64,000 nucleotides of DNA from a virus (lineage: Duplodnaviria > Caudoviricetes), in IMG/VR virus record IMGVR_UViG_3300031555_004891. The stretch is one strand, 5' to 3'. The translations under genes were made by a program, and so were the position numbers. The notes beneath the pieces were generated by a model. The model was given only the letters and a program-made list of their open reading frames with translations. It was not told the DNA's origin and searched no databases. Position 1 is the stretch's first letter, and each line of letters begins with the position of its first letter. Shown here piece after piece: positions 618 through 64,000 of the stretch.

Positions 618-2522
618 ATGGCAACAAAAATCGAATATACAAATACAAATATATACGAACAATACGAGCCTATAATCTGGAAGGATAACGAAACGCCATT
701 AAACTCTGAAAACTTAAATCATATTGAGCAGGGTATTTCTAACGTTTCTAAAGTTGTTCTTAATTATTATAGTAGAACTGTTGATCTAGAATCAGAAGTC
801 TTTGTAGTAGTAGAAGAAAATGGTTTATTGCAACCTAAATCAGAAATTAAATTATTAAGATCTGATGTTACTGCTCTTCAAAAAGATTTAGGCGAAGTTC
901 ATAACGCACTTTTAGTAGAAATGATAGATTCGAAAGGTAATGCTGAAATGGTGCAGCTCGGCGAAGCTGTTAGAGAATTACTTATCGAATTTGCTAGCAT
1001 TTTAACTGAGTTAGATAGAATTGAAGAGGTTAAAGGTCTTCAAGATGAAATAAAAAACACAACTGCAGGTTTAACAGAAGAAGAAATAATCAGAAGAAAC
1101 GCTGATAACGAAATTAACGCTAAAATAGCTGAATTAGAAGCAGCTTTAGGTACTTCTGGAACTAATACAACTGCTAAATTTGCGGAAATAGAGGAAGCTT
1201 ATAAAGCAGCAGATGCAGAGTTATCTAAGAAAGTTTAGGATGAAATTCAACCAAAAATTGATCAAGTAAGTGCTGATGTTGCTACATTAAGTACCACTCA
1301 CGAAGCAGATAAAACAGCTCAAGCTTCTATTGATGCTACTCAAGATAGTAAAATAGGTGTATTAGAAACATCAATAAAAACTAAAGCAGATAAAGCTACA
1401 ACTTTAGCTGGTTATGGAATTACAGATGCATATACATAGGTAGAAGTAAATAGCTTTATCGATATTATTAATGAAAATTTAATAGATAATTACGCTACAA
1501 AAGAAAATGTAAGCGAAGAAATAGATAAAATAGATTTAAGTCCATACGCTACTAAAGAAGCTTTAACTTTAAGTACTACCATAACAGAAGATTTAGTTAC
1601 TACTACTGGTGTTGGAACGCTTCCAGCAGGTACAAATCTTAAAGGTATGACTTTGATAGATGTAATTAAAAAATTACTTTGTCAAAATTTAGGTGTAGCT
1701 ACTTATCCAACTTTCACAGAGCCTTCTATAAATGTTGTCTTAGATGAAACAACAGCCATATATGGTACATCTTTCACCACTACAGGTCATGTCACAGCTA
1801 ATAGAGGTTTAATTAATCCAGCATATTCTGTTGGTGGAAGCGCTTATAGAGCTGGTGAAGTTATTAAATATACTGTTAACGGTGAAGATCAAGTTTCTAA
1901 CGAACTAACTTATGATTTCAATCTTACTATTGATAAAGTCGAAGCTGGAATAAATGAAGTCAAAGTATCTGTTACGTTTGCTCAAGGTCCTCAGCCATTA
2001 GATAGTAATGGTGTTAATTATGATAGTCCATATCCAGAAACAACTATAGAAGAAATTTTAACAGTAAATGGTTTAGTTATGGCTTATAGTGGGTCGAGTG
2101 GAGATTCTGTAAGTCAAAATTCTACAGAAATTATAACTGATGATACTGCTTATAATAAATCTGGTTTCTTCGAAGTTGCTGACGAATCTGGTAATGTAAC
2201 AGAATCTGGTTATCAAAGCGTTGTTCCTGCTGTAGAAGTAGATCCTGAAACTTATGCACCTTTAGCTGGATAGGTTGTATTAATCCCAGAATCTCAAAAG
2301 CTTATTGGAATTAAGTATTGGGATGAATTAGGTCAAGCATGGAGCTGGTATGGTAATATATCTGCAGAAGATTCTTTGACTCACGAATGGAAAAATGTTG
2401 GAACATAGGAAATAGAAATAACAGAAGGAACTAGTGTTACTTATACAAAATATGAATTTGATATATCAGATCCATACGCTGTATTTGGCGCAGAATCTTA
2501 CTGGAGATTTGTAATAGAATAA
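618..2522 (+). CDS. Tail fibre / coiled-coil structural protein (634 aa, TAG=Gln)
   Basis: ORFs 618-1238 and 1647-2273 share a frame and are interrupted only by TAG; first TAA is at 2520-2522. The region between them encodes the common fibre motif KADKATTLAGYGITDAYT(TAG)VEV. N-terminal WKDNETPLNSENLNHIEQGI is typical of tail proteins. Confidence 0.8.
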
Positions 2523-2536
2523 GGAGAATTATATAG

Positions 2537-4606
2537 ATGGCTATAAATACAGCTAAAGGTTCGATGACTCAATATGCTTATACTAAAGCTGGTCCTTTCG
2601 ATTCTAAAATGTTAGTTAAAACAAAAGCTGAATTAACGCAAGCAGCTACCTGGATTCCTCAAGGTGGGTCTATGCCAGTCCATTATGCTGGAATGATTGT
2701 TTCAGTTAATGCTGATACTGTTACTGAGAATAATGGTATTTATATTCTTAAAAATGCAGCTTTTAGTAATGAGAGCAATTGGGTAAAATTATGCGATTTA
2801 GATGCTTTAGATGCTTTAAAAGCAGAATTAGAAGAAAAAATCGCAAACGAAGCTGGTCAAAAAGGTGATCAAGGTGATCCTGGTAAATCAGCTTACCAAA
2901 TATGGGTAGAAGCTGGAAATGAAGGCAATGAAGAAGCATTTTTAGCTAGTTTAATCGGTGCACAAGGCCCTCAAGGTGAAACAGGACCTCAAGGCGAACA
3001 AGGCCCTCAAGGTGTGCAAGGTGAGCAAGGTATTCAAGGTGAAACAGGACCAACAGGTCCAACTGGACCTCAAGGCCCTAAAGGTGATACTGGTGCAACT
3101 GGACCTCAAGGTGATATTGGTCCTACAGGTCCTCAAGGTCCTACTGGTGACAAAGGTGAAAAGGGTGAACCTGGCGTATCTAGCATTAAATTATCGGATA
3201 TAAAATCAGATTGGTCTACTGTTATTGCTGGAGATATTTATTTAACCCAAAAAGTTAACGAATTTACAACATTAACTGGTGAGCAAAACGCAGTTGGTGT
3301 TATGGTTATCGTTAGAGCAATTGATGCTGATAATCAAGCTAATTCTCAAGTTGATTATATCGGTAAACTTACTGGTGAGCAAGGTCCTAAAGGTGATAAA
3401 GGCGATAAGGGTGATATAGGCCCTCAAGGTCCTACTGGCGCTCAAGGTCCTAAGGGTGAACAAGGAACAGGTGTTAATATAAAAGCATCAGAAACTGATT
3501 GTACTGAACTTGGTGATGCCTATATTGATTCCGAAGGTAATATCCAAATTGTAACATCTGTTAGCCCTAAATATTTCACAAATGGTGGTCAAGTTAAAGG
3601 TCCTAAAGGCGATAAGGGTGATAAAGGTGATAAAGGCGACACTGGTGCACAAGGCCCCACTGGTCCTGCAGGAAGTGACGCAACAGTTACAAAAGAAGCA
3701 GTAGAAAATGTTTTAACTGGAATTATCACAACTCACGAACATTATGATGATAAAATTAAATTATCAGCTGATATTTGGACTGATAAGACTATTGGTCATA
3801 TAGAAGGTACAGCTAACGCACCTAAGAAAGTTGCTAGTAAAGATGATACCTTAAAAACATTATTTACTAACATATTTGGTACTGTAGAAGATGATAGTAC
3901 TGATTTGGTGCATGCACCAACTATAACTAAAGTTTCTATTGGAAGTTCTTCTTATGAGTATGGTACTAAATTAACAACCTTACCAGTAACTATTAGCAAA
4001 AAATCAGGTTATTATGAGTATGGACCTACTGTTGCTGATCCTAGCTGGACTTTCAGCGGTACTGTAACTGGTTTTTCTGGAGCAACTTTTGATGGTTCAA
4101 AAATAACATTAAATGGCAACTTTGTTGTTGGTCAAACTTCTTCTTTAAAGTTGGATGTTTCTGGATCTTATACATACCTTAGCACAATAAAGACTGCTAC
4201 AACAAAGATGGGTAATGCTACTGATCAAAAACTTGTATCAGGCACTACTAGTGGATCAGGAACATTTAATCCTACAGGTGTTAAATATGTTTACTGGGCT
4301 ACATCAACAACAACTGCAACACCAACTTCTTGGAAAAAATACAGTACTGGTACAACATCAATAACAGATTTACAATTATCATGTAAAGCTAATGAATATA
4401 TTTGGGTGGCTTGCACAGATAATAAAACTAACTTCTATGCATGGAACGATGCTAGCGGTAAGTATAATACAGATCCATTACCTACAACAAAAACTGGTAC
4501 AGCATCTATAGTAAATGCACAGGAAGCTTCTGTTAGTGGATATTATTTATATCGTACAACAAACGCTATGCTTCAAGCAGTAGATACTAAATTTAAGTTA
4601 GCATAA
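2537..4606 (+). CDS. Collagen-like (Gly-X-Y) tail fibre protein
   Basis: Several GPQGEQ/GDKGDK triplet blocks, the KSAYQIWVEAGNEGNEEAFLASL motif, and a Thr/Ser-rich C-terminus. AAGGAG RBS. Confidence 0.85.
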   Translation: MAINTAKGSMTQYAYTKAGPFDSKMLVKTKAELTQAATWIPQGGSMPVHYAGMIVSVNADTVTENNGIYILKNAAFSNESNWVKLCDLDALDALKAELEEKIANEAGQKGDQGDPGKSAYQIWVEAGNEGNEEAFLASLIGAQGPQGETGPQGEQGPQGVQGEQGIQGETGPTGPTGPQGPKGDTGATGPQGDIGPTGPQGPTGDKGEKGEPGVSSIKLSDIKSDWSTVIAGDIYLTQKVNEFTTLTGEQNAVGVMVIVRAIDADNQANSQVDYIGKLTGEQGPKGDKGDKGDIGPQGPTGAQGPKGEQGTGVNIKASETDCTELGDAYIDSEGNIQIVTSVSPKYFTNGGQVKGPKGDKGDKGDKGDTGAQGPTGPAGSDATVTKEAVENVLTGIITTHEHYDDKIKLSADIWTDKTIGHIEGTANAPKKVASKDDTLKTLFTNIFGTVEDDSTDLVHAPTITKVSIGSSSYEYGTKLTTLPVTISKKSGYYEYGPTVADPSWTFSGTVTGFSGATFDGSKITLNGNFVVGQTSSLKLDVSGSYTYLSTIKTATTKMGNATDQKLVSGTTSGSGTFNPTGVKYVYWATSTTTATPTSWKKYSTGTTSITDLQLSCKANEYIWVACTDNKTNFYAWNDASGKYNTDPLPTTKTGTASIVNAQEASVSGYYLYRTTNAMLQAVDTKFKLA
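2957..3175 (+). repeat. Collagen Gly-X-Y coding repeats (GGNCCTCAAGGT-like units)
   Basis: Imperfect 9-nt periodic repeats; further blocks near 3374-3470 and 3598-3672. Confidence 0.8.
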
Positions 4607-4619
4607 GGAGAAATAAGAA

Positions 4620-5609
4620 ATGGCAAGTAATGTAATTAATTCAGGTTTAAACCTTATGAATACTGCATATAATGGTGCTGGTGGTATAGTTTTATCAGGT
4701 GATGCAGTTAAAGGTGGTTATTTTGTAACTGACACTATTGCGAATATTCCTTCTTGGTCTAATGTTGAAGGTACTTTATGCTATTGTACAGGTGATTCTA
4801 AATTCTATCAATACGATGGATCTAATTGGAAAGAAGCAGCTTTTTCAGGTAGCAATGGTTCAGGTATTTCTACTGTAAATAGTAAACAATATTCTGGTGG
4901 TATTTTTACTCCAATAAATTATCCTTCTGATACCACTGTAAAAGGTGGTGGTTATTTAGCTACATCTGTATTTGCTGATGATGGTGCAACTTCATATAAT
5001 AGTTCTGAATTTATTAAACCACGTGGTATAAGTGTAAATGGCGCAGAAGCTAGTGCTGATAGTACTAACTATTATAGACCAGTTATTGCTAAAGCTGATG
5101 GATCTATTGCTGAATTACCAGACTTAACTATTTATGCACCTGTTGCAGCTGGTAAGGAAGGTGAATTTGTTGTTGCTGACGAAAATGGTAAAGCTGTTTG
5201 GTCTAACGTGACAAAAGAAACAATTGGCTTAGATAAAGTAGAAAATAAATCTGCAACTGATTTAAAATCTGAGTTTAAAGGTACTATAGCAGCTGGTGAT
5301 ACTGGTTTTACAACTGGCGGTGATGTTTATACTAAATTAAATGAAAAAGCTAATACATCACATAGTCACGCTGCTTCTGACATAACATCAGGTACATTAG
5401 CTATAGATAGAATTCCTACAGGTACTAGCAGCACAACTGTAGCTATTGGTAATCATGGTCACGATAGTGTATATTCAAAATTAGGACACACTCATACAGG
5501 ACATTCAGGCGAAGCTACTGGTACAGCTAAAAAAGTTTGGACCTATACTGGCGATGGTAAATATGCTTGGACTTCTGGCTATGTAGATGATGGTGATTTA
5601 ACTGAATAA
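4620..5609 (+). CDS. Tail fibre-like protein
   Basis: His-rich fibre repeats (KANTSHSHAASDITSGTL, NHGH, GHTH) and a 'TKETIGLDKVEN' motif. Confidence 0.75.
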   Translation: MASNVINSGLNLMNTAYNGAGGIVLSGDAVKGGYFVTDTIANIPSWSNVEGTLCYCTGDSKFYQYDGSNWKEAAFSGSNGSGISTVNSKQYSGGIFTPINYPSDTTVKGGGYLATSVFADDGATSYNSSEFIKPRGISVNGAEASADSTNYYRPVIAKADGSIAELPDLTIYAPVAAGKEGEFVVADENGKAVWSNVTKETIGLDKVENKSATDLKSEFKGTIAAGDTGFTTGGDVYTKLNEKANTSHSHAASDITSGTLAIDRIPTGTSSTTVAIGNHGHDSVYSKLGHTHTGHSGEATGTAKKVWTYTGDGKYAWTSGYVDDGDLTE

Positions 5610-5638
5610 AAACCTGTATAATATTATGCAGATACTGT

Positions 5639-5672
5639 AAGCAAGCAGAAATTTCTGCTTGCTTTTCTTTTT
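5639..5672 (+). terminator. Inverted repeat / intrinsic terminator
   Basis: AAGCAAGCAGAAA-TTTCTGCTTGCTT followed by a T-run. Confidence 0.65.
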
Positions 5673-5685
5673 ACTGGGAGGTTAT

Positions 5686-6906
5686 ATGAAAACTTTTAAC
5701 TCATATAAAGATGTAAAAATTTGCTGTTATGCTATGTGTGCTAGTGAGCCAGAAGCCTTTATAGATAGATGGCTCGAAAGTATGAAAGGTGCTGATTGGA
5801 TAACTGTTTTAGTTACCAAAGCTAATGATCCAAATTATGCTTATTTTAAACAAAAACAACAACTACCAGAATTCGCAAATAAGCTTATTGTAGAAGAAAA
5901 AGCCATATCACCATGGCGTTTTGATACAGCTAGAAATGAAAGTATGAAACTAATACCTAAGGAAGCAGATGCTCTTATTTGCACTGATATTGATGAAATT
6001 CTTATAGAAGATTTTTGGGATGATTATAGAAAATGTGTTTTTGAGCATCCTAATTTTGAGAGAATATATTATCAATATGCATGGTCTCATGATGAAACTA
6101 CTGGTGATCCTAAATGGTATTTTTGGTATGATAAAACGCATCAAAATGGTGGTTGGTTTTGGGATTATCCAGTCCATGAGTCCTTGAAATGTCCTGAAAT
6201 AGAAAAATATGGTTACATAGGAACATATTATCTAGATTCTAATAAAATATATTTGCATCATTATCCAGATACTACAAAAAGTAGAAGTAGTTATTTAGGT
6301 TTATTAGAAATGCGAGCTAAAGAATATCCAGAAGATATGTATGGTTTATATTATCTGCAAAGGGAGTATTCTTTTATAGATGATTACGAGAGTGCACTTA
6401 AAACAGCTGTTCAACTGTATGTTCGACTTCTTAAAAATAATCCAAATGCAGAAGAATTAGAAGCTAGAGATGATATGATGATGCTATCAGGAACATGCGT
6501 TTCTATAGGTGATTATTTCTTACAATTTAACATGAAAGAAGATGCTGAATTATTCTATAAAAAAGCTATGATTCATGATCCTGGTTTTAGAGATAGTTAT
6601 ATAAAACTAGCACAAATGTATGCATATTGTGGTAGATATTCTGATTGTTATTCGATTTTAGATATAATGGATATAAACTCTGTTTATAGAGTTGATTGGC
6701 GTTTAGTTTCATATTATTGGCGAGATTGGAAGCGTTATCAGATTTTAGCTGATGCTAAATGTTGGGAAGGTGACTTAAAAGAAGCTGGAAGATACTTTAA
6801 TCTAGCTCTTGCAGATATAAAAACTGATGATGATAGAAAAGATGCTAGCGAAGAAGGTTTTTATAATGACTATCAGTGGTACTTAATTAATAAAGGTAAA
6901 GCATAA
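5686..6906 (+). CDS. Glycosyltransferase family 2 with TPR-like C-terminus
   Basis: GT-A motifs 'WRFDTARNES', DxD 'TDIDE', 'YPVHE', 'LHHY'. GGGAGG RBS supports ATG 5686. Confidence 0.8.
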   Translation: MKTFNSYKDVKICCYAMCASEPEAFIDRWLESMKGADWITVLVTKANDPNYAYFKQKQQLPEFANKLIVEEKAISPWRFDTARNESMKLIPKEADALICTDIDEILIEDFWDDYRKCVFEHPNFERIYYQYAWSHDETTGDPKWYFWYDKTHQNGGWFWDYPVHESLKCPEIEKYGYIGTYYLDSNKIYLHHYPDTTKSRSSYLGLLEMRAKEYPEDMYGLYYLQREYSFIDDYESALKTAVQLYVRLLKNNPNAEELEARDDMMMLSGTCVSIGDYFLQFNMKEDAELFYKKAMIHDPGFRDSYIKLAQMYAYCGRYSDCYSILDIMDINSVYRVDWRLVSYYWRDWKRYQILADAKCWEGDLKEAGRYFNLALADIKTDDDRKDASEEGFYNDYQWYLINKGKA

Positions 6907-53173: not shown

Positions 53174-55924
53174 ATGGTAGATTCATTGTGGGGTGATGAT
53201 TTCATTATAAAGAAAACCCCTAAAGAAGCTAAAAAGATAATTAAAAAAATATCTGAGCCAAAAGATTCTTCTTCTGTTGTAAAAAAAGCCGTAAAGTCCA
53301 AAAAACTATCCGTCCATGAAAAGTTAGCTATTATTACCGAGAATGTTAAAAAGATTCTCGGTAGATACGCTGACAACACTCAAGTGATAAGGACACGGCA
53401 AGAGTTAACTGATTATATCGACATAGCTATAAAAAATAATGTAATTGCGGTCGATACTGAAACGAATAACAGTCTTGACCCCATCACATGTAAATTGATG
53501 GGTCCCTGTTTATATACACCAGGTTTAAAGAATGCTTATGTACCATTAAATCATGTTAACCCAGATACTTTAGAAAGATTTGATTGGCAATTAACGGAAG
53601 AAGATGTAAAAGAAGAATTAAGTAGACTTACAGATACTAAAATAATAATGCACAATGGTAAGTTCGACTATTCTGTAATAAAATGCACCACAGGTGTTGA
53701 GTTAAGCATTTATTGGGATACAATGATTGGTGCAAAAGTTTTAGATGAGAATGAGAGGTCAGCTGGTTTGAAACAGCAGTATATCGAAAAGATAGATCCA
53801 TCTATTGAAAAATACTCTATAGATCACTTATTTGAAGATATAGAGTATGCGATGGTTGACCCAGAAATATTTGCTTTATATGCTGCAACAGACTCTTATA
53901 TGACTTATAAGCTTTATGAGTGGCAAAAAGATAAATTTGAGATACCTGGTCACCAGCGTTTATATAGCCTTTTTAGAAATGTAGAGATTCCTGTAATAAT
54001 TCCTATAGCTGAAATGGAAATGACTGGTGTAGAAGTAGATCAAGAATATGCTGAGTTGTTAAGTAAAAAGTATCATAAGAAATTAGATACAATCGATCTT
54101 AAAATAGCTGCAGAGTTAGCTACATTAAAAGATAAAATAGCTGAGTGGCGTTTAACAGAAGATGCTAATTTCCACCCGATAGCAACAAAACCTAACAAAT
54201 ATGGTGAGTATTTAGAGCAAAAATCTAAATCAGAGCAATTAGAAGATCCTATAAACTTAGCCAGTCCAACACAGTTAGCTATATTATTCTATGATATATT
54301 AAAATGTCCACCTGTAGATAAAAAGAAACCTAGAGGAACAGGTGAAGCAGAATTAAAAGCTATAGAGCAGAAATTAAAACTTCCTATTTGTAGCCTTTTA
54401 GTAGAAAGACGTGAATGGGTAAAATTGATAACTACTTACATAGACGTAATTCCGGAACTAGCAAAAAGATGGCCTGATGGTAGAGTTCGTACTCACTTTA
54501 ACCAATACGGGGCAGCTACGGGTCGTATGAGTTCGAGTGATCCGCTGAACCTGTAGAATATACCATCACATAATAAAGAAATCCGTATGTTATTTAGAGC
54601 TGCTGATAATTGTGTATTAGTTGGTAGCGACTTCAGTTTATAAATCTGTTGGCTGAAGTAAAACTTACTTAAACGGGGAACTCTCATTGAGACAATCCCG
54701 TGCCAAATCAATCTTAAGATTGATAGTGCGTAGAGACTATCGAAAAGGTAGGCGTAAGCTGAGTAACTGAGTAGAGTAGGCTTCAAGCGAAGTCGAAACA
54801 GTAAGCAACTAAAAAGTTGAAGAGTTAGTCCGACACTTCTAGTGATAGAAGAGAGGTGTAGCGAGCCTCAAAACAAGAAGCAACAAGAACCTAGATTACT
54901 CTCACAATACTCAGGTGATGAGAATATGATTAATGCTTATAAAGCAGGTAAAGACCTTTATGCTACTATTGCCTGTGGTGTATATAAAAATACGTATTGG
55001 GATAACATGGAGCATTGGGAAGATGGATCACCTAATCCTGAAGGTAAGAAACGTAGAGGTAATTGTAAGAGCTTACTTTTGGGGATAATGTATGGACGTG
55101 GTGTAGCTTCTATAGCTGAACAAATTAAAGGTACAGTAGAAGAAGCACAAAAAATTATCGATGATTTTTACACTGGATTTCCAAAAGTAAAAGAATGGAC
55201 TGATAAAACTCAAGCAGATGCTAAAAAGACTGGTTATGTAGAAGATTTATGGGGTAGAAGACGTAGACTTACAGATCTTATGCTTCCTAAATATACTATT
55301 AAAGACCTTAATGCTGCTAAACTTGATTTTAATCCTATCTTACACGCAGAAGGAAAGTTCTCGAAAAAAGAAAATCCTTCTATACAGAAATATAAAGCAG
55401 CACTTGAAAAAGTTCGCGGTAGAAAAGAATATGAAAAGCTAAAAGAGCAAGCATTGAAAGAAAATATAGAATTGCATGATAACACAGGTTTTATAGCTCA
55501 GGCTGAGAGACAATGTGTTAATGCTAGAATTCAGGGTGGTGCTGCTTCCATGACTAAAGTAGCTGTTATAAAGCTGTATAATGATAAAATTCTCAGAGAT
55601 TTAGGATTTAAGTTAAATATAGCCGTGCATGATGAGTTAATTGGTGAGTGCCCTAAAGAAAATGCAGATGCAGTAGCTGATAGACTTTGTGCTATAATGA
55701 AAGGTGCTGCTGAAGACGTTTGTGATGTACCATTTAAATGTGACCCTACAGTTGAGCATTGTTGGTATTTCTCAGATTTCTGCGATACTGTTCAAAAAGA
55801 ATTTAAAGAAGTTTTGAAAAAGTATAATAATGATTGGAATTCAGCATTTAATTATATGGTAGAAACTCATGAAGAATCAACAATTGATCAATTACATGAG
55901 CTTTTAGATGAAATAGCTGTATAA
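53174..55924 (+). CDS. polA: Family A DNA polymerase, join(53174..54637,54881..55924), 835 aa, TAG=Gln
   Basis: Exonuclease motifs DTET, HNGKFD, YAATD. TGRMSSSDPLNL-Q(TAG)-NIP. Motif A DFS^QQEPR is restored on splicing; motif B KSLLLGIMYG; motif C VHDE. Confidence 0.92.
54638..54880 (+). mobile_element. Group I intron (IA-like, 243 nt, no ORF)
   Basis: The 5' exon ends in U and pairs with GCTGAAGT (54652-54659, P1). TGTTG pairs with 3' exon CAACA (P10). P3 CTTACT/AGTAAG, P7 GACTA/TAGTC, terminal G. An in-frame TAA is present if unspliced. Confidence 0.88.
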
Positions 55925-55934
55925 ATAAATAACA

Positions 55935-55988
55935 ATGCGAAGTTCACACTCGAATATCCTTCGCATAATAAAATAAAACTTTAAGGAG
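55935..55988 (+). promoter_or_regulatory. preQ1-I-like riboswitch
   Basis: Stem ATGCGAAG/CTTCGCAT, loop starting UUC and ending AUC, A-rich tail ending AAAACU next to the SD AAGGAG. Directly upstream of a VUT-family transporter. Confidence 0.7.
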
Positions 55989-55997
55989 ATTTTTAAA

Positions 55998-56777
55998 ATG
56001 AGTAAAGTAAAAAATTGGTTTAAGTAGGAATGGAATGAGATCAAAACACTTTTAAGTAATGTTAACCCTTTAGTTATGACCTTTTTTATTCTAGGTGTTG
56101 TGGCTATGAATTTGCTAGCTAATAAGTCTATTGATTTAAGTTTTCTTCCTGGAAATGATGTTAATAACGGTGAGTTTGGTTGGTTAGCTTTAGATTGTGG
56201 CTTTTTAATCTCATGGTTATGCTTTTTTTCAATGGACAATATAGCTAGACGTTTCGGTCCTAAAGCATCAACCCAAATGACCATTGTTGCTATAGTTGTT
56301 AATTTAATTGTTTGTGGAATATTTCTGCTAGCTGGTATAATTCCTGGAACATGGGGTGAAAGTTATGTAGAAAATGGTGCGATTATAAATACTGCTTTAG
56401 ATAACACAATATCTGGAAGTTGGTATGTATTAATGGGATCAACTGTAGCATTTATTTGCTCAGCAATAGTACATGGGTTAGCTAGTACAGCTATAAGCAA
56501 AATCTTTAAGGATAAAGAGACACTTAAAGCATACGCAGTATGTAGTGCAGTAGGAACTAGCTTAGGCCAATTTGTAGATAATATGATTTTTGCTTTAATT
56601 GTAAGCTTAAACTTTTTTGGTTGGAATATTTTACAATGCATAATGTGTTCAATTACTGGTATGATATTTGAGTTTCTAATGAGTGTAATTTTTGTTCCTA
56701 TTGGTCATAAGATATATAAGAATGATCAAGAGCGAGCAAATAGAAAAGATGAGGTAGGATTCGAATGCGAGTTTTAA
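55998..56777 (+). CDS. yhhQ: VUT-family (YhhQ/COG1738) queuosine-precursor transporter (259 aa, TAG=Gln at codon 10)
   Basis: Multi-TM protein with MNLLANK, DNIARRFG, GSTVAF, SLGQFVDNMIF motifs. Confidence 0.8.
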
Positions 56778-57424
56778 TTACAGGAACATCTAAAGGAATA
56801 GGAAAAGCTATAGCTGAAAAATTTATTTATGAGCATGCTGATTGGGAAATCATTGGCTTTGATAGACTAGATTCTACTATAGATAAACCTAATTACAAAC
56901 ATTATAAAGTAGATGTTAGAGATGTAGAAAATTACCCAGATATTTCTAATATAAATATTATAATTAACAACGCTGGAACTCAGAATGAAGATGATATTAA
57001 CATTAACTTAAAGGGTGCGATTTCTATTACCGAGCGTTATGGAATCCAACCTGGAATTAAAAGTATCTTAATGATTGGGTCAGCGAGTGCACATACTGGT
57101 GATGAATTCCCTCAATACGTTGCTTCGAAAGGTGGTTTAATAGCTTACACAAAAAATGTAGCTAGAAGAATTGCTAAATATGGGGCAACCTGTAACAGCT
57201 TAGACTTTGGAGGTGTTTTAACCGAGTTAAATAAACCTGTTATGGAAAACAAAGAATGCTGGGATAAGATAATGGAAGTAACAGCATTAAAGCGTTGGAT
57301 GGAACCAGAAGAGACAGCTGATTGGGCTTATTTTGTTACTGTAATCAACAAAGGTATGACTGCGCAAACGCTTCTTATTGATAATGGGGAAGCTTCGATT
57401 GTAAACAATTTCCAATGGTGTTAA
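56765..57424 (+). CDS. Short-chain dehydrogenase/reductase (SDR)
   Basis: TGTSKGIG, NNAG, catalytic S and YVASK. Overlaps the transporter stop. Confidence 0.88.
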   Translation: MRVLITGTSKGIGKAIAEKFIYEHADWEIIGFDRLDSTIDKPNYKHYKVDVRDVENYPDISNINIIINNAGTQNEDDININLKGAISITERYGIQPGIKSILMIGSASAHTGDEFPQYVASKGGLIAYTKNVARRIAKYGATCNSLDFGGVLTELNKPVMENKECWDKIMEVTALKRWMEPEETADWAYFVTVINKGMTAQTLLIDNGEASIVNNFQWC

Positions 57425-57431
57425 AAAAATT

Positions 57432-57482
57432 AGTCAACTAGGTTAAAATCTAGTTGACTTTTCTTTTCAAATTTATTATAAT
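57432..57482 (+). promoter_or_regulatory. Terminator hairpin fused to a sigma70-type promoter (TTGACT-17-TATAAT)
   Basis: AGTCAACTAG/CTAGTTGACT hairpin; -35 at 57454-57459, -10 at 57477-57482. Confidence 0.75.
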
Positions 57483-57513
57483 ATATGTATACTAATAAAA
57501 TGTGAGGTACCGC

Positions 57514-58818
57514 ATGTTTAAAGATTTTGTAGACTTATGCACTAAATTAGCTGGAACAACTAGTCGACTCAAGAAAGAAGAATACTTGAGAGAATATGAA
57601 AATAATGATTATGTAAAGAAATGCTTATATTTTAGATTTAACCCATACATCACTACAGGTATTTCTAAAAAGAAGATTTCTAAATTACAGCAATCATTTG
57701 AAGATAGAATTGTAGACCCTAATTATAATGTTTTAGATCTGCTGGATTATATTAAAGAGCATAATACAGGTAGAGATGTAGATTTGAGCAAGCTTGAGAG
57801 TTATGCTGAGATGAATTCGCCTTACGCTGATATTATTTATGGTTTAGTTTCAAAAGAATTGAATTTAGGTATTCAAGCAATCACACTTAATAAAGTTTAT
57901 GGTGATAATTTTGTTCCAACGTTTGATTTAATGTTAGCTATGAAATATTTCGATGATCCAGATAAATATCTTCCAGATGGTACAGAATTTGACATTACAG
58001 CAAAACTAGATGGCGTAAGATGTGTTTGCTTTTATGATACTGATTCTATTAAATTCTTTAGCCGTCAAGGTCAACCTATTTATGGCTTAAATCAATTGGA
58101 AGAAGCAGTCAGAGAAAACTTAACACCTGGGTATGTTTATGATGGTGAGCTTCTGTTAAATAGATCAGATCTACACAGTAAAGATTTGTATAGAGCAACA
58201 GTAAAAGTAACATCTGCTGATGCTGTAAAAGAAAATATAGTTTTCAATATTTTTGATAGACTTTCAATAGAAGAATTCAAAAGAGGCTATTCGGATAGTA
58301 TTTCTAGAGATAGAAAAGATGCTTTGCATGCAGAATTGCAGCGTAATAAATCAGAATTCTTAAAAGAAGTAGAAATTCTTTATAGAGGAACAGATAAGTC
58401 TAAAATTCAATATTGGTTGGATAAAATTACATCAGAAGGCGGCGAAGGTGTAATGCTCAACTTATGTAATAGTCCATATGAGTGTAAAAGAAGTAAAGTA
58501 ATTCTTAAAGTAAAGAAAATGCAATCCGCAGATTTAAAATGTATTGCAGTAGAAGAAGGTACTGGTCAAAATGTTGGTAGACTAGGTGCAGCTATTGTAC
58601 AACTTCCTGTAGAAGATAAAATCTATGAAGTAAGTGTTGGTTCCGGTTTCACATTCGAAGATCGAGAATACTTCTGGAATAATAGAGAAGAAATTGTCGG
58701 TAAAATTATCGAGGTACAGTATTTCGAGATAACGCAAAACCAGCAAGGCGGATATAGTTTGAGATTCCCTGTATTTAAAGCAGTAAGAAACGATAAAACA
58801 GAAGTATCTATGTTTTAA
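57514..58818 (+). CDS. lig: ATP-dependent DNA ligase
   Basis: KLDGVR, YDGEL, EGVML, LKVK, SLRFP. Confidence 0.92.
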   Translation: MFKDFVDLCTKLAGTTSRLKKEEYLREYENNDYVKKCLYFRFNPYITTGISKKKISKLQQSFEDRIVDPNYNVLDLLDYIKEHNTGRDVDLSKLESYAEMNSPYADIIYGLVSKELNLGIQAITLNKVYGDNFVPTFDLMLAMKYFDDPDKYLPDGTEFDITAKLDGVRCVCFYDTDSIKFFSRQGQPIYGLNQLEEAVRENLTPGYVYDGELLLNRSDLHSKDLYRATVKVTSADAVKENIVFNIFDRLSIEEFKRGYSDSISRDRKDALHAELQRNKSEFLKEVEILYRGTDKSKIQYWLDKITSEGGEGVMLNLCNSPYECKRSKVILKVKKMQSADLKCIAVEEGTGQNVGRLGAAIVQLPVEDKIYEVSVGSGFTFEDREYFWNNREEIVGKIIEVQYFEITQNQQGGYSLRFPVFKAVRNDKTEVSMF

Positions 58819-63102: not shown

Positions 63103-63172
63103 TAATTTTATTAAATATGAAAGCACTGTTTTTGTATAAATATAATGAAACATAGACATTTTGGAGGAAGTA

Positions 63173-64000
63173 ATGGAAAAACTAATCAATCAAGATTGGA
63201 CTAATCCTTTTACTAATTGTAAAATAGGTGAAGATTATTATGGAATTATAGCTGCTGGCGAAGGTGTTAAAAATGTAAAAATGCCTGATGGGACTATTCT
63301 TGATGCTAGCGATGTTAAGAGAGATTTGGGTTATCCACAACTTTTTGCTTGGAATTTAGAAGGAAAAGCCTTGTTGGAATGGGTTGAGTATTTAGATAAA
63401 AATCCTGATTGTCCCTGTAAGTTAGTTGTTGACTCAGGTGCGTATTCTATGTGGAGCCGTGGAAAAGAATTTGATATGGATGAGTATATCAATTTCTTAA
63501 ACAGTAATGATGTTATAGAAAAAGCTTTTTGGGTAGCAGAAGCTGACGTTATCCCTGGAAGTATGGGTGTAGATCCAACAGAAGAAGAAAGAGCAGCAGC
63601 ACCTGAAAAAAGCTGGGAAAACTTCTTATATATGGTAGATAGAGTTAAAATTCCTAAGAAAATTGTACCTATTTTCCATCAAGGTGAAGATATCAAGCAT
63701 TTGAGACGAATGTTAGCTTATAGATATCCAGATGGTGATTTCATTCCATATATTGGAATTTCTCCTCGAAATGATGTCCATGTTAATGAAAAATCAAAAT
63801 GGTATGAGTATATTTGGAAAGTTATTTATGAAGATTGTGCAGCTTTAGGTCGGGATATTCCATTGACTCATAACTTTGGTATGACTACTATAGCTCTCAT
63901 GGAGCAGTATCCTAGTTACACATCAGATTCGACTTCATGGATTAGAAGCGCATCTTTTGGTAATATAATGATTATAGTAAATGGTAAAATAAAAACTGTA
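63173..64000 (+). CDS. dpdA: TGT-fold 7-deazaguanine DNA transglycosylase (DpdA-like), 3'-truncated
   Basis: Absent from the ORF track because it has no stop in the window. GGAGG RBS; motifs VVDSGAYS, DVIPG, VPIFHQGE, YIGIS, THNFGMT, SDSTSW. Confidence 0.82.
   Translation, partial: MEKLINQDWTNPFTNCKIGEDYYGIIAAGEGVKNVKMPDGTILDASDVKRDLGYPQLFAWNLEGKALLEWVEYLDKNPDCPCKLVVDSGAYSMWSRGKEFDMDEYINFLNSNDVIEKAFWVAEADVIPGSMGVDPTEEERAAAPEKSWENFLYMVDRVKIPKKIVPIFHQGEDIKHLRRMLAYRYPDGDFIPYIGISPRNDVHVNEKSKWYEYIWKVIYEDCAALGRDIPLTHNFGMTTIALMEQYPSYTSDSTSWIRSASFGNIMIIVNGKIKTV

Follow-up and report, generated by a model that had tools for sequence, protein, structure and literature searches.

Three reports that summarize Yuan et al. 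2019 (PMC11477304, PMC11130926, PMC12632869) describe QueL as the radical S-adenosylmethionine (radical-SAM) queuine lyase of Clostridioides difficile. The salvage operon of this bacterium has the order preQ1-I riboswitch, queK, qrtT and queL (PMC11477304), and a 2025 preprint allows that QueL may have a non-orthologous replacement still to be discovered (PMC12632869). Here we analyze a stretch of 64,000 nucleotides (nt) from a virus of the Caudoviricetes (Duplodnaviria; IMG/VR record IMGVR_UViG_3300031555_004891), hereafter called the window, in which a gene for a short-chain dehydrogenase/reductase (SDR) follows that for a transporter of the Vut_1/YhhQ(QPTR) family. The SDR belongs to a family that is linked to such transporters across phages and bacteria, and that in certain bacterial operons takes the place held by queL in C. 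difficile. Judging by these associations, it very probably acts in the salvage of 7-deazaguanines, the precursors of queuosine. On a narrower reading, toward which we lean by a modest degree, the SDR would, with the adjacent transporter, turn imported queuine into preQ1, as an NAD-dependent analog of QueL.

Three sets of enzymes offer points of comparison. Like QueL, the SDR can stand third after a Q-type nucleoside hydrolase and the S-component of an energy-coupling factor (ECF) transporter behind a preQ1-I riboswitch. Both are found in gut Bacillota that have tRNA-guanine transglycosylase (TGT) and QueA without QueDECF, and the predicted product is preQ1 in both cases. However, the analogy is functional only, as the SDR is a Rossmann-fold NAD enzyme with a Ser-Tyr-Lys catalytic set whereas QueL is an Fe-S radical-SAM enzyme; moreover, the usual partner of the SDR is a Vut_1 carrier and not an ECF component, and the SDR is common in phages. 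QueF, as is proposed for the SDR, catalyzes a nicotinamide-dependent step to preQ1 and occurs in phage deazaguanine clusters, but it is an NADPH-dependent preQ0 reductase of the T-fold with a different mechanism, and it coexists with the SDR in seven viral records. In contrast, FabG and EntA/DhbA (2,3-dihydro-2,3-dihydroxybenzoate dehydrogenase) share with the SDR the fold, the cofactor motif and the catalytic residues (TM 0.74-0.82; hidden Markov model E-values of 1e-12 to 1e-18), yet the SDR is only 21-29% identical to them, about 30 residues shorter, and set in a wholly different genomic context. An earlier note on this DNA had held that QueK, QueL and QueF are not SDRs, which agrees with the published accounts (PMC12632869, PMC11130926, PMC11477304), and our literature search found no paper giving an SDR or oxidoreductase a role in queuine/preQ1 salvage.

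The transporter-SDR unit and the SDR family

The unit comprises the following features:

55935-55988, plus strand: preQ1-I-like leader RNA, a member of the motif described below (predicted fold of -12 kcal/mol, z -2.1)
55998-56777, plus strand: transporter of the Vut_1/YhhQ(QPTR) family, 259 amino acids (aa) (PF02592, 58.9 bits against a cut-off of 27.2)
56765-57424, plus strand: classical SDR of predicted NAD type, 219 aa (from Pfam, motifs, AlphaFold2 and Foldseek)
57432-57469, plus strand: intrinsic terminator closing the unit (12-bp stem, 4-nt loop and T-run; hairpin at 57432-57459)

The earlier note had described an intact SDR overlapping the transporter stop, in a transcript that ends at the 57432 hairpin, and both elements of this description hold. 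The open reading frame (ORF) of the SDR runs from an ATG to a TAA and encodes a protein that begins MRVLITGTSKGIG. The ATG falls within the upstream Vut_1 gene (TAA at 56775-56777), giving an overlap of 13 nt, and no terminator-like site was detected at the junction. The transporter start, which had been placed at 56076, is to be moved upstream to 55998, 9 nt after an AAGGAG; the extended frame has a TAG at 56025-56027 (codon 10) that is read as sense, and the 26 residues ahead of the Met at 56076 align with homologs.

Pfam recovers only SDR domains in the protein, adh_short (PF00106) with an E-value of 3.3e-15 and adh_short_C2 (PF13561) with 6.3e-17, at 56.5 and 62.4 bits against cut-offs of about 27; neither a Radical_SAM domain nor the QueF domain PF14489 was detected, which sets it apart from both QueL and QueF. 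The cofactor motif TGxxxGIG (T6-G7-x3-G11-I12-G13) is invariant among 25 orthologs, as are N68-N69-A70-G71, S106, Y118 and K122, so that both the NNAG motif and the Ser/YxxxK residues of the superfamily are intact, with a Ser-Tyr spacing of 12 residues against the usual 13. Equally invariant in these orthologs is Asp33 at the end of beta2. By the coenzyme rules for classical SDRs an Asp at this position points to NAD rather than NADP, and Asp33 hence predicts an NAD cofactor and a reaction in the dehydrogenase (oxidative) direction. An AlphaFold2 model (pLDDT 88.8, pTM 0.89) has a Rossmann-type alpha/beta fold. A Foldseek search with it gave a TM of 0.82 to FabG (4nbt_A) and placed EntA-type NAD-dependent diol dehydrogenases among the top neighbors, but this search and a sequence search of the PDB returned generic SDRs only, with no pointer to a substrate. 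The protein reaches 61-68 bits with the FabG equivalog models, whose cut-offs are 222-298, and every named model scores it far below the respective cut-off. By its sequence, the enzyme is thus assignable to the classical SDR superfamily and falls in no named subfamily.

The family to which it belongs is a tight group of proteins of 216-219 aa that is very abundant in gut metagenomes, with orthologs 47-82% identical and matches in at least 561 bacterial species genomes and dozens of phages. A scan of IMG/VR for close relatives with the single SDR protein gave no match, and GenBank phages contain generic SDRs only, at 24-30% identity. Several of the matches in bacterial genomes have one in-frame stop (TAG in G224 and G287; TAA in G262, G273 and G511; TGA in G336), and these are possibly pseudogenes, or else copies carried by recoded prophages.

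Linkage to Vut_1 and the queL position

Searches with a 25-member SDR alignment retrieved 38 viral loci from IMG/VR and at least 561 bacterial species loci, of which the best 80 were analyzed. In 37 of the 38 viral and 53 of the 80 bacterial loci, the SDR gene is immediately preceded on the same strand by a Vut_1 gene, which mostly overlaps it, and all-against-all clustering of the neighbors recovered Vut_1 as the sole family broadly conserved beside the SDR. The major clades of a quick maximum-likelihood tree of the SDRs are one of phages (32 rows), one of Oscillospiraceae type (49 rows) and one of Lachnospiraceae type. All of them show the linkage, which extends down to about 47% identity; changes of context are limited to the Lachnospiraceae-type clade, with which the window SDR groups. 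The earlier note had proposed such a survey of neighborhoods, naming the lack of any link between SDR homologs and VUT, que or dpdA genes as what would refute its idea, and the survey found the opposite. Individual Vut_1-SDR or hydrolase-ECF-SDR loci are on contigs binned as Kiritimatiellia or Prevotella (L076, L087 and L119), reflecting either transfer outside Bacillota or mis-binning.

In nine of the bacterial loci Vut_1 is absent, and the SDR gene instead stands third, behind genes for a nucleoside hydrolase of the IU type (PF01156, 1.8e-89) and for an ECF S-component. All eight of these that were scanned have, directly ahead of the hydrolase gene, a preQ1-I riboswitch of the canonical type (RF00522 at 51-55 bits, against a gathering score of 39), followed by a terminator stem. 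This is the same architecture as that of the C. difficile operon, and it places the SDR in the queL slot. The equivalence of the slot is also seen within the Lachnospiraceae: in 151 genomes there are six RF00522 matches above the gathering score, all ahead of a hydrolase/ECF S-component pair, and the third gene codes for the SDR in two of these operons and for a radical-SAM protein of 236-262 aa in three, with the SDR located 6 kb away in the sixth genome. The closest NCBIfam model to this radical-SAM slot-mate, hereafter QueL-like, is the archaeosine enzyme RaSEA. Two further RF00522 matches of 29-31 bits stand directly before additional QueL-like genes (G095:C3:384618-385513 and G100:C172:4676-5484), indicating that the Rfam gathering score misses real preQ1-type switches in Lachnospiraceae.

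The gene content of SDR-bearing isolates indicates why such a step would be required. Five isolate genomes with the SDR, four of Blautia and one of Fusicatenibacter faecihominis, encode TGT (E-value about 1e-160) and QueA (about 1e-148), while in none of the five was there a QueF or QueC above cut-off or a match to the QueL-like slot-mate. Their TGTs carry the sequences AFDEC and GGLAVGE, of which the Cys and the Val respectively are what we take to mark a preQ1-specific bacterial TGT, queuine-accepting TGTs having Val and Gly at these places. With a preQ1-type TGT and QueA, and without QueC or QueF, these bacteria insert preQ1 but cannot make it and therefore depend on salvage. They import a nucleoside or base under preQ1 control, and among the genes of that operon only the SDR is left for chemistry after the hydrolase.

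Deazaguanine genes also accompany the pair in viruses. In a 160-kb IMG/VR phage (L165, positions 1492-6097) the gene order is Vut_1-SDR-QueF-QueC-QueD (PTPS)-QueE (radical SAM)-FolE, a cluster in which salvage and de novo routes to preQ1 stand side by side. True QueF (107-117 bits) together with QueC occurs beside Vut_1-SDR in seven of 22 viral records, and DpdA in 14 of the 22. Four near-complete phages of 42-50 kb have the pair and show no DpdA match, which makes the supply of host TGT and QueA for more queuosine-modified tRNA (Q-tRNA) an equally live use of the product.

The leader RNA and the phage genome

The earlier note had spoken of a riboswitch-led transcript. Rfam gives no riboswitch call in the window at gathering scores, nor at E-values up to 10 over 55800-57600, and none upstream of Vut_1 in the loci of 25 relatives, where the RF00522 gathering score of 39 bits is not reached; the sequence ahead of the transporter nevertheless belongs to a conserved preQ1-I-like motif. 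In the window its stem P1 pairs 55935-55942 with 55959-55966 around a 16-nt loop that starts with UUC and ends with AUC, and is followed by an A-rich tail (55967-55982) and a Shine-Dalgarno sequence, AAGGAG, at 55983-55988, within the leader itself. By inspection and a pattern scan, a common layout was recognized in 59 of 102 Vut_1-bearing entries, the window and its near-identical copies included: a hairpin of 5-8 bp, a loop of the form UU(C/U/A)...C, an A-rich tail ending in AAAAC(U/C), and an AGG or Shine-Dalgarno sequence.

Across 28 distinct copies, six of the seven P1 pairs change on both sides, with a covariation score of 0.669 against 0.173 in shuffles and at most 0.152 in slid controls, and the GUU, CC and AAA columns of the alignment are invariant. 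A covariance model built from this alignment gave 44 matches with E-values below 0.01, every one of them shortly before a Vut_1 gene and on the coding strand. The window leader is part of the model seed, and its own match of 37.8 bits is circular. One phage Vut_1-SDR pair is preceded by two such motifs in tandem (L021:8336-8384, 31.3 bits, and L021:8453-8500, 34.6 bits).

The motif resembles preQ1-I (RF00522) in its short P1, the UUC/UUCG start of the loop, a C just before the 3' strand of P1, and the AAAAC(U/C) tail leading into an AGG or Shine-Dalgarno sequence. It differs in that the loop is 3-9 nt longer and RF00522 fails to detect the leader; likewise, the leader covariance model matched no canonical preQ1-I copy. 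In Lachnospiraceae, RF00522 matches below the threshold (28-36 bits) appear to stand midway between the two forms, and the leader is therefore taken to be a probable divergent relative of preQ1-I, with preQ1 as its putative ligand. Bacterial copies of the leader have a terminator downstream and the phage copy has none; in the latter, the loop CUC (55949-55951) could pair with the GAG of the Shine-Dalgarno sequence (55986-55988), and the two features together suggest translational control.

A different short leader, unmatched by the leader model, is found about 100 nt upstream of Vut_1 in the phages of 42-50 kb (L037-L046) and also in L015, L030 and L050. It has a hairpin with CCAGAGAAC in the loop and an A-rich tail followed by CUGGAGG or AGGAG; a pairing between CCAG in the loop and CUGG in the tail is possible, and the element may be another pseudoknot switch.

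The phage itself comes from the ruminant gut, is apparently recoded at TAG, and encodes a DpdA as well. The window has a G+C content of 31%, with all long ORFs on the plus strand. With TAG taken as a sense codon, ORFs lengthen and merge, and those of at least 100 aa cover 74.1 kb instead of 57.7 kb; there are up to 14 in-frame TAGs in structural genes, and none or one in early and replication genes. From this pattern TAG appears to be a sense codon in the whole phage, and ARAGORN found no tRNA, hence no suppressor tRNA, in the window. The presence of genes for DnaB, primase, a split PolA, an ATP-dependent ligase, pieces of a methylase and a TGT-fold DpdA-like protein, with a dUTPase just past the window, is indicative of a large phage, and identical copies of the stretch are found on contigs that reach 102 kb and more. 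The sequencing runs that contain most of it are metagenomes of animal feces and of bovine or sheep gut. A gap of about 200 nt splits the PolA gene into 53174-54643, which contains one TAG, and 54842-55924; in the related phage L011, ORFs for GIY-YIG/NUMOD3 endonucleases lie between the PolA pieces, which suggests that the split is due to introns or inteins. Two further features of the window are:

57454-57482, plus strand: promoter-like site TTGACT-17-TATAAT (11/12, sigma-70-like) for the next gene, a DNA ligase
63161-64000, plus strand: DpdA-like (TGT-fold) gene (phrog_887, 2.2e-42), cut by the window end

The 3' arm of the terminator provides the -35 box of the ligase-gene promoter, and 57432-57482 thereby forms a compact stop-and-start cassette. 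The DpdA gene is 5.7 kb downstream of the SDR, and the split methylase and a GNAT-like gene are also nearby. Searches by tblastn with the L165 proteins found no QueF, QueC, QueD, QueE or FolE in the window and its 3-kb flank, about 35 kb of the approximately 102-kb phage lying outside this search; with no que genes in the part seen, salvage may be the sole source of deazaguanine for this phage.

Candidate reactions and their implications

The logic of the operons and the NAD-type cofactor signature agree best with a conversion of queuine to preQ1, and oxidation of the queuine diol to release preQ1 had been suggested, as speculation, in the earlier note. In the mechanism that we propose, the transporter would import queuine, the free queuosine base, which is plentiful in animal guts, and the SDR would use NAD+ to oxidize one hydroxyl of its cyclopentenediol ring. 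A ketone placed beside the carbon of the C-N bond would give an amino-ketone, whose imine tautomer could be hydrolyzed, in the fashion of a reverse Amadori reaction, to release preQ1; alternatively, an allylic ketone might allow beta-elimination to preQ1. The product could then feed phage DpdA for DNA modification, host TGT and QueA for Q-tRNA, or both, and the preQ1-I-like leader would damp expression by hiding the ribosome-binding site.

Several observations weigh against this proposal. The assignment of the substrate comes from context alone, and no SDR is known to us to free an amino-cyclitol of its amine in the queuosine pathway. Sixteen of the 80 bacterial orthologs in the tree stand alone, away from any Q gene. 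The Vut_1 partners of the SDR form a divergent subgroup that falls short of the TIGR00697 equivalog cut-off of 50.95 bits (31.2 for the window transporter, 32-45 for six others), and the transported substrate is itself uncertain. Likewise, the ECF S-component of the bacterial operons matches the 'CD3073 family' model below its cut-off only, and matches neither the QueT nor the QrtT model. The radical-SAM slot-mates, in turn, are putative counterparts of C. difficile QueL, going by their context. The SDR and the QueL-like gene never co-occur, either in the 151 Lachnospiraceae genomes (6 with the SDR, 15 with the QueL-like gene) or in a second sample of 399 genomes (28 and 29), where the lack of overlap is statistically weak, with about two overlaps expected and P of about 0.12; this absence agrees with the analogy between the two enzymes and is not proof of it.

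Of the alternatives, the one that fares best, though we regard it as a distinctly less probable option, keeps the SDR in deazaguanine metabolism and gives it another step: action on queuosine, epoxyqueuine or another 7-substituted base, an anti-leak conversion after passive import, or the making of a derivative for phage DNA hypermodification. The linkage ties the enzyme to the pathway and not to any one reaction, the divergence of the Vut_1 partners leaves the imported compound unfixed, and the DpdA, split methylase and GNAT-like genes near the SDR in the window would suit such a role. However, the bacterial operons are under preQ1-type riboswitches, the bacteria that carry them require preQ1, to which no other route from queuine is visible, and in sister genomes a QueL-like enzyme fills the slot of the SDR; a role confined to DNA hypermodification is made unlikely by the four near-complete phages with the pair and no DpdA.

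It is improbable that the SDR is a non-orthologous nitrile reductase, which would convert imported preQ0 to preQ1 in organisms devoid of QueF. The SDR-bearing isolates do lack QueF, and YhhQ-type carriers import preQ0 in E. coli (PMC5372724), but the SDR coexists with true QueF in the seven viral records, in one phage with QueF directly after it. Further, the nucleoside hydrolase of the operons points to a nucleoside-derived substrate, and the invariant Asp33 predicts NAD, not the NADPH of such a reductase. The four-electron reduction of a nitrile needs a covalent Cys thioimide in QueF, and to our knowledge no SDR performs a reduction of this kind. Least probable of all, and already disfavored, is a generic FabG-like auxiliary metabolic gene incidentally adjacent to a transporter: its best PHROG ('FabG-like 3-oxoacyl-ACP reductase'), NCBIfam and PDB matches are to FabG and some bacterial orthologs stand alone, but the FabG models score far below their cut-offs, the family is tight in length, and the gene pairing persists in phages as well as in two bacterial families and has a conserved leader RNA of its own.

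The conversion of queuine to preQ1 can be extended from this locus to the family, in a form that we hold to be evenly balanced between true and false: NAD-dependent SDRs of this type would constitute an 'oxidative queuine lyase' that regenerates preQ1 from queuine of host or dietary origin in numerous gut Clostridia devoid of QueL, and phages would have captured them, together with the carrier and a divergent preQ1-type riboswitch, for DNA modification or for raised levels of Q-tRNA. Queuosine is a micronutrient common to gut bacteria and their animal hosts, and models of how it is made, stolen and recycled need all of the salvage enzymes. The only route from queuine to preQ1 known to us is that of the oxygen-sensitive radical-SAM enzyme QueL, and the SDR family provides a concrete candidate for a missing salvage enzyme. 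If the proposal is true, many gut Clostridia would shift from being users of preQ1 to recyclers of queuine, and SDR chemistry would gain a new strategy for C-N cleavage. Phages, for their part, would be tapping the queuine pool, with possible effects on 7-deazaguanine modification of their DNA and hence on their escape from restriction.

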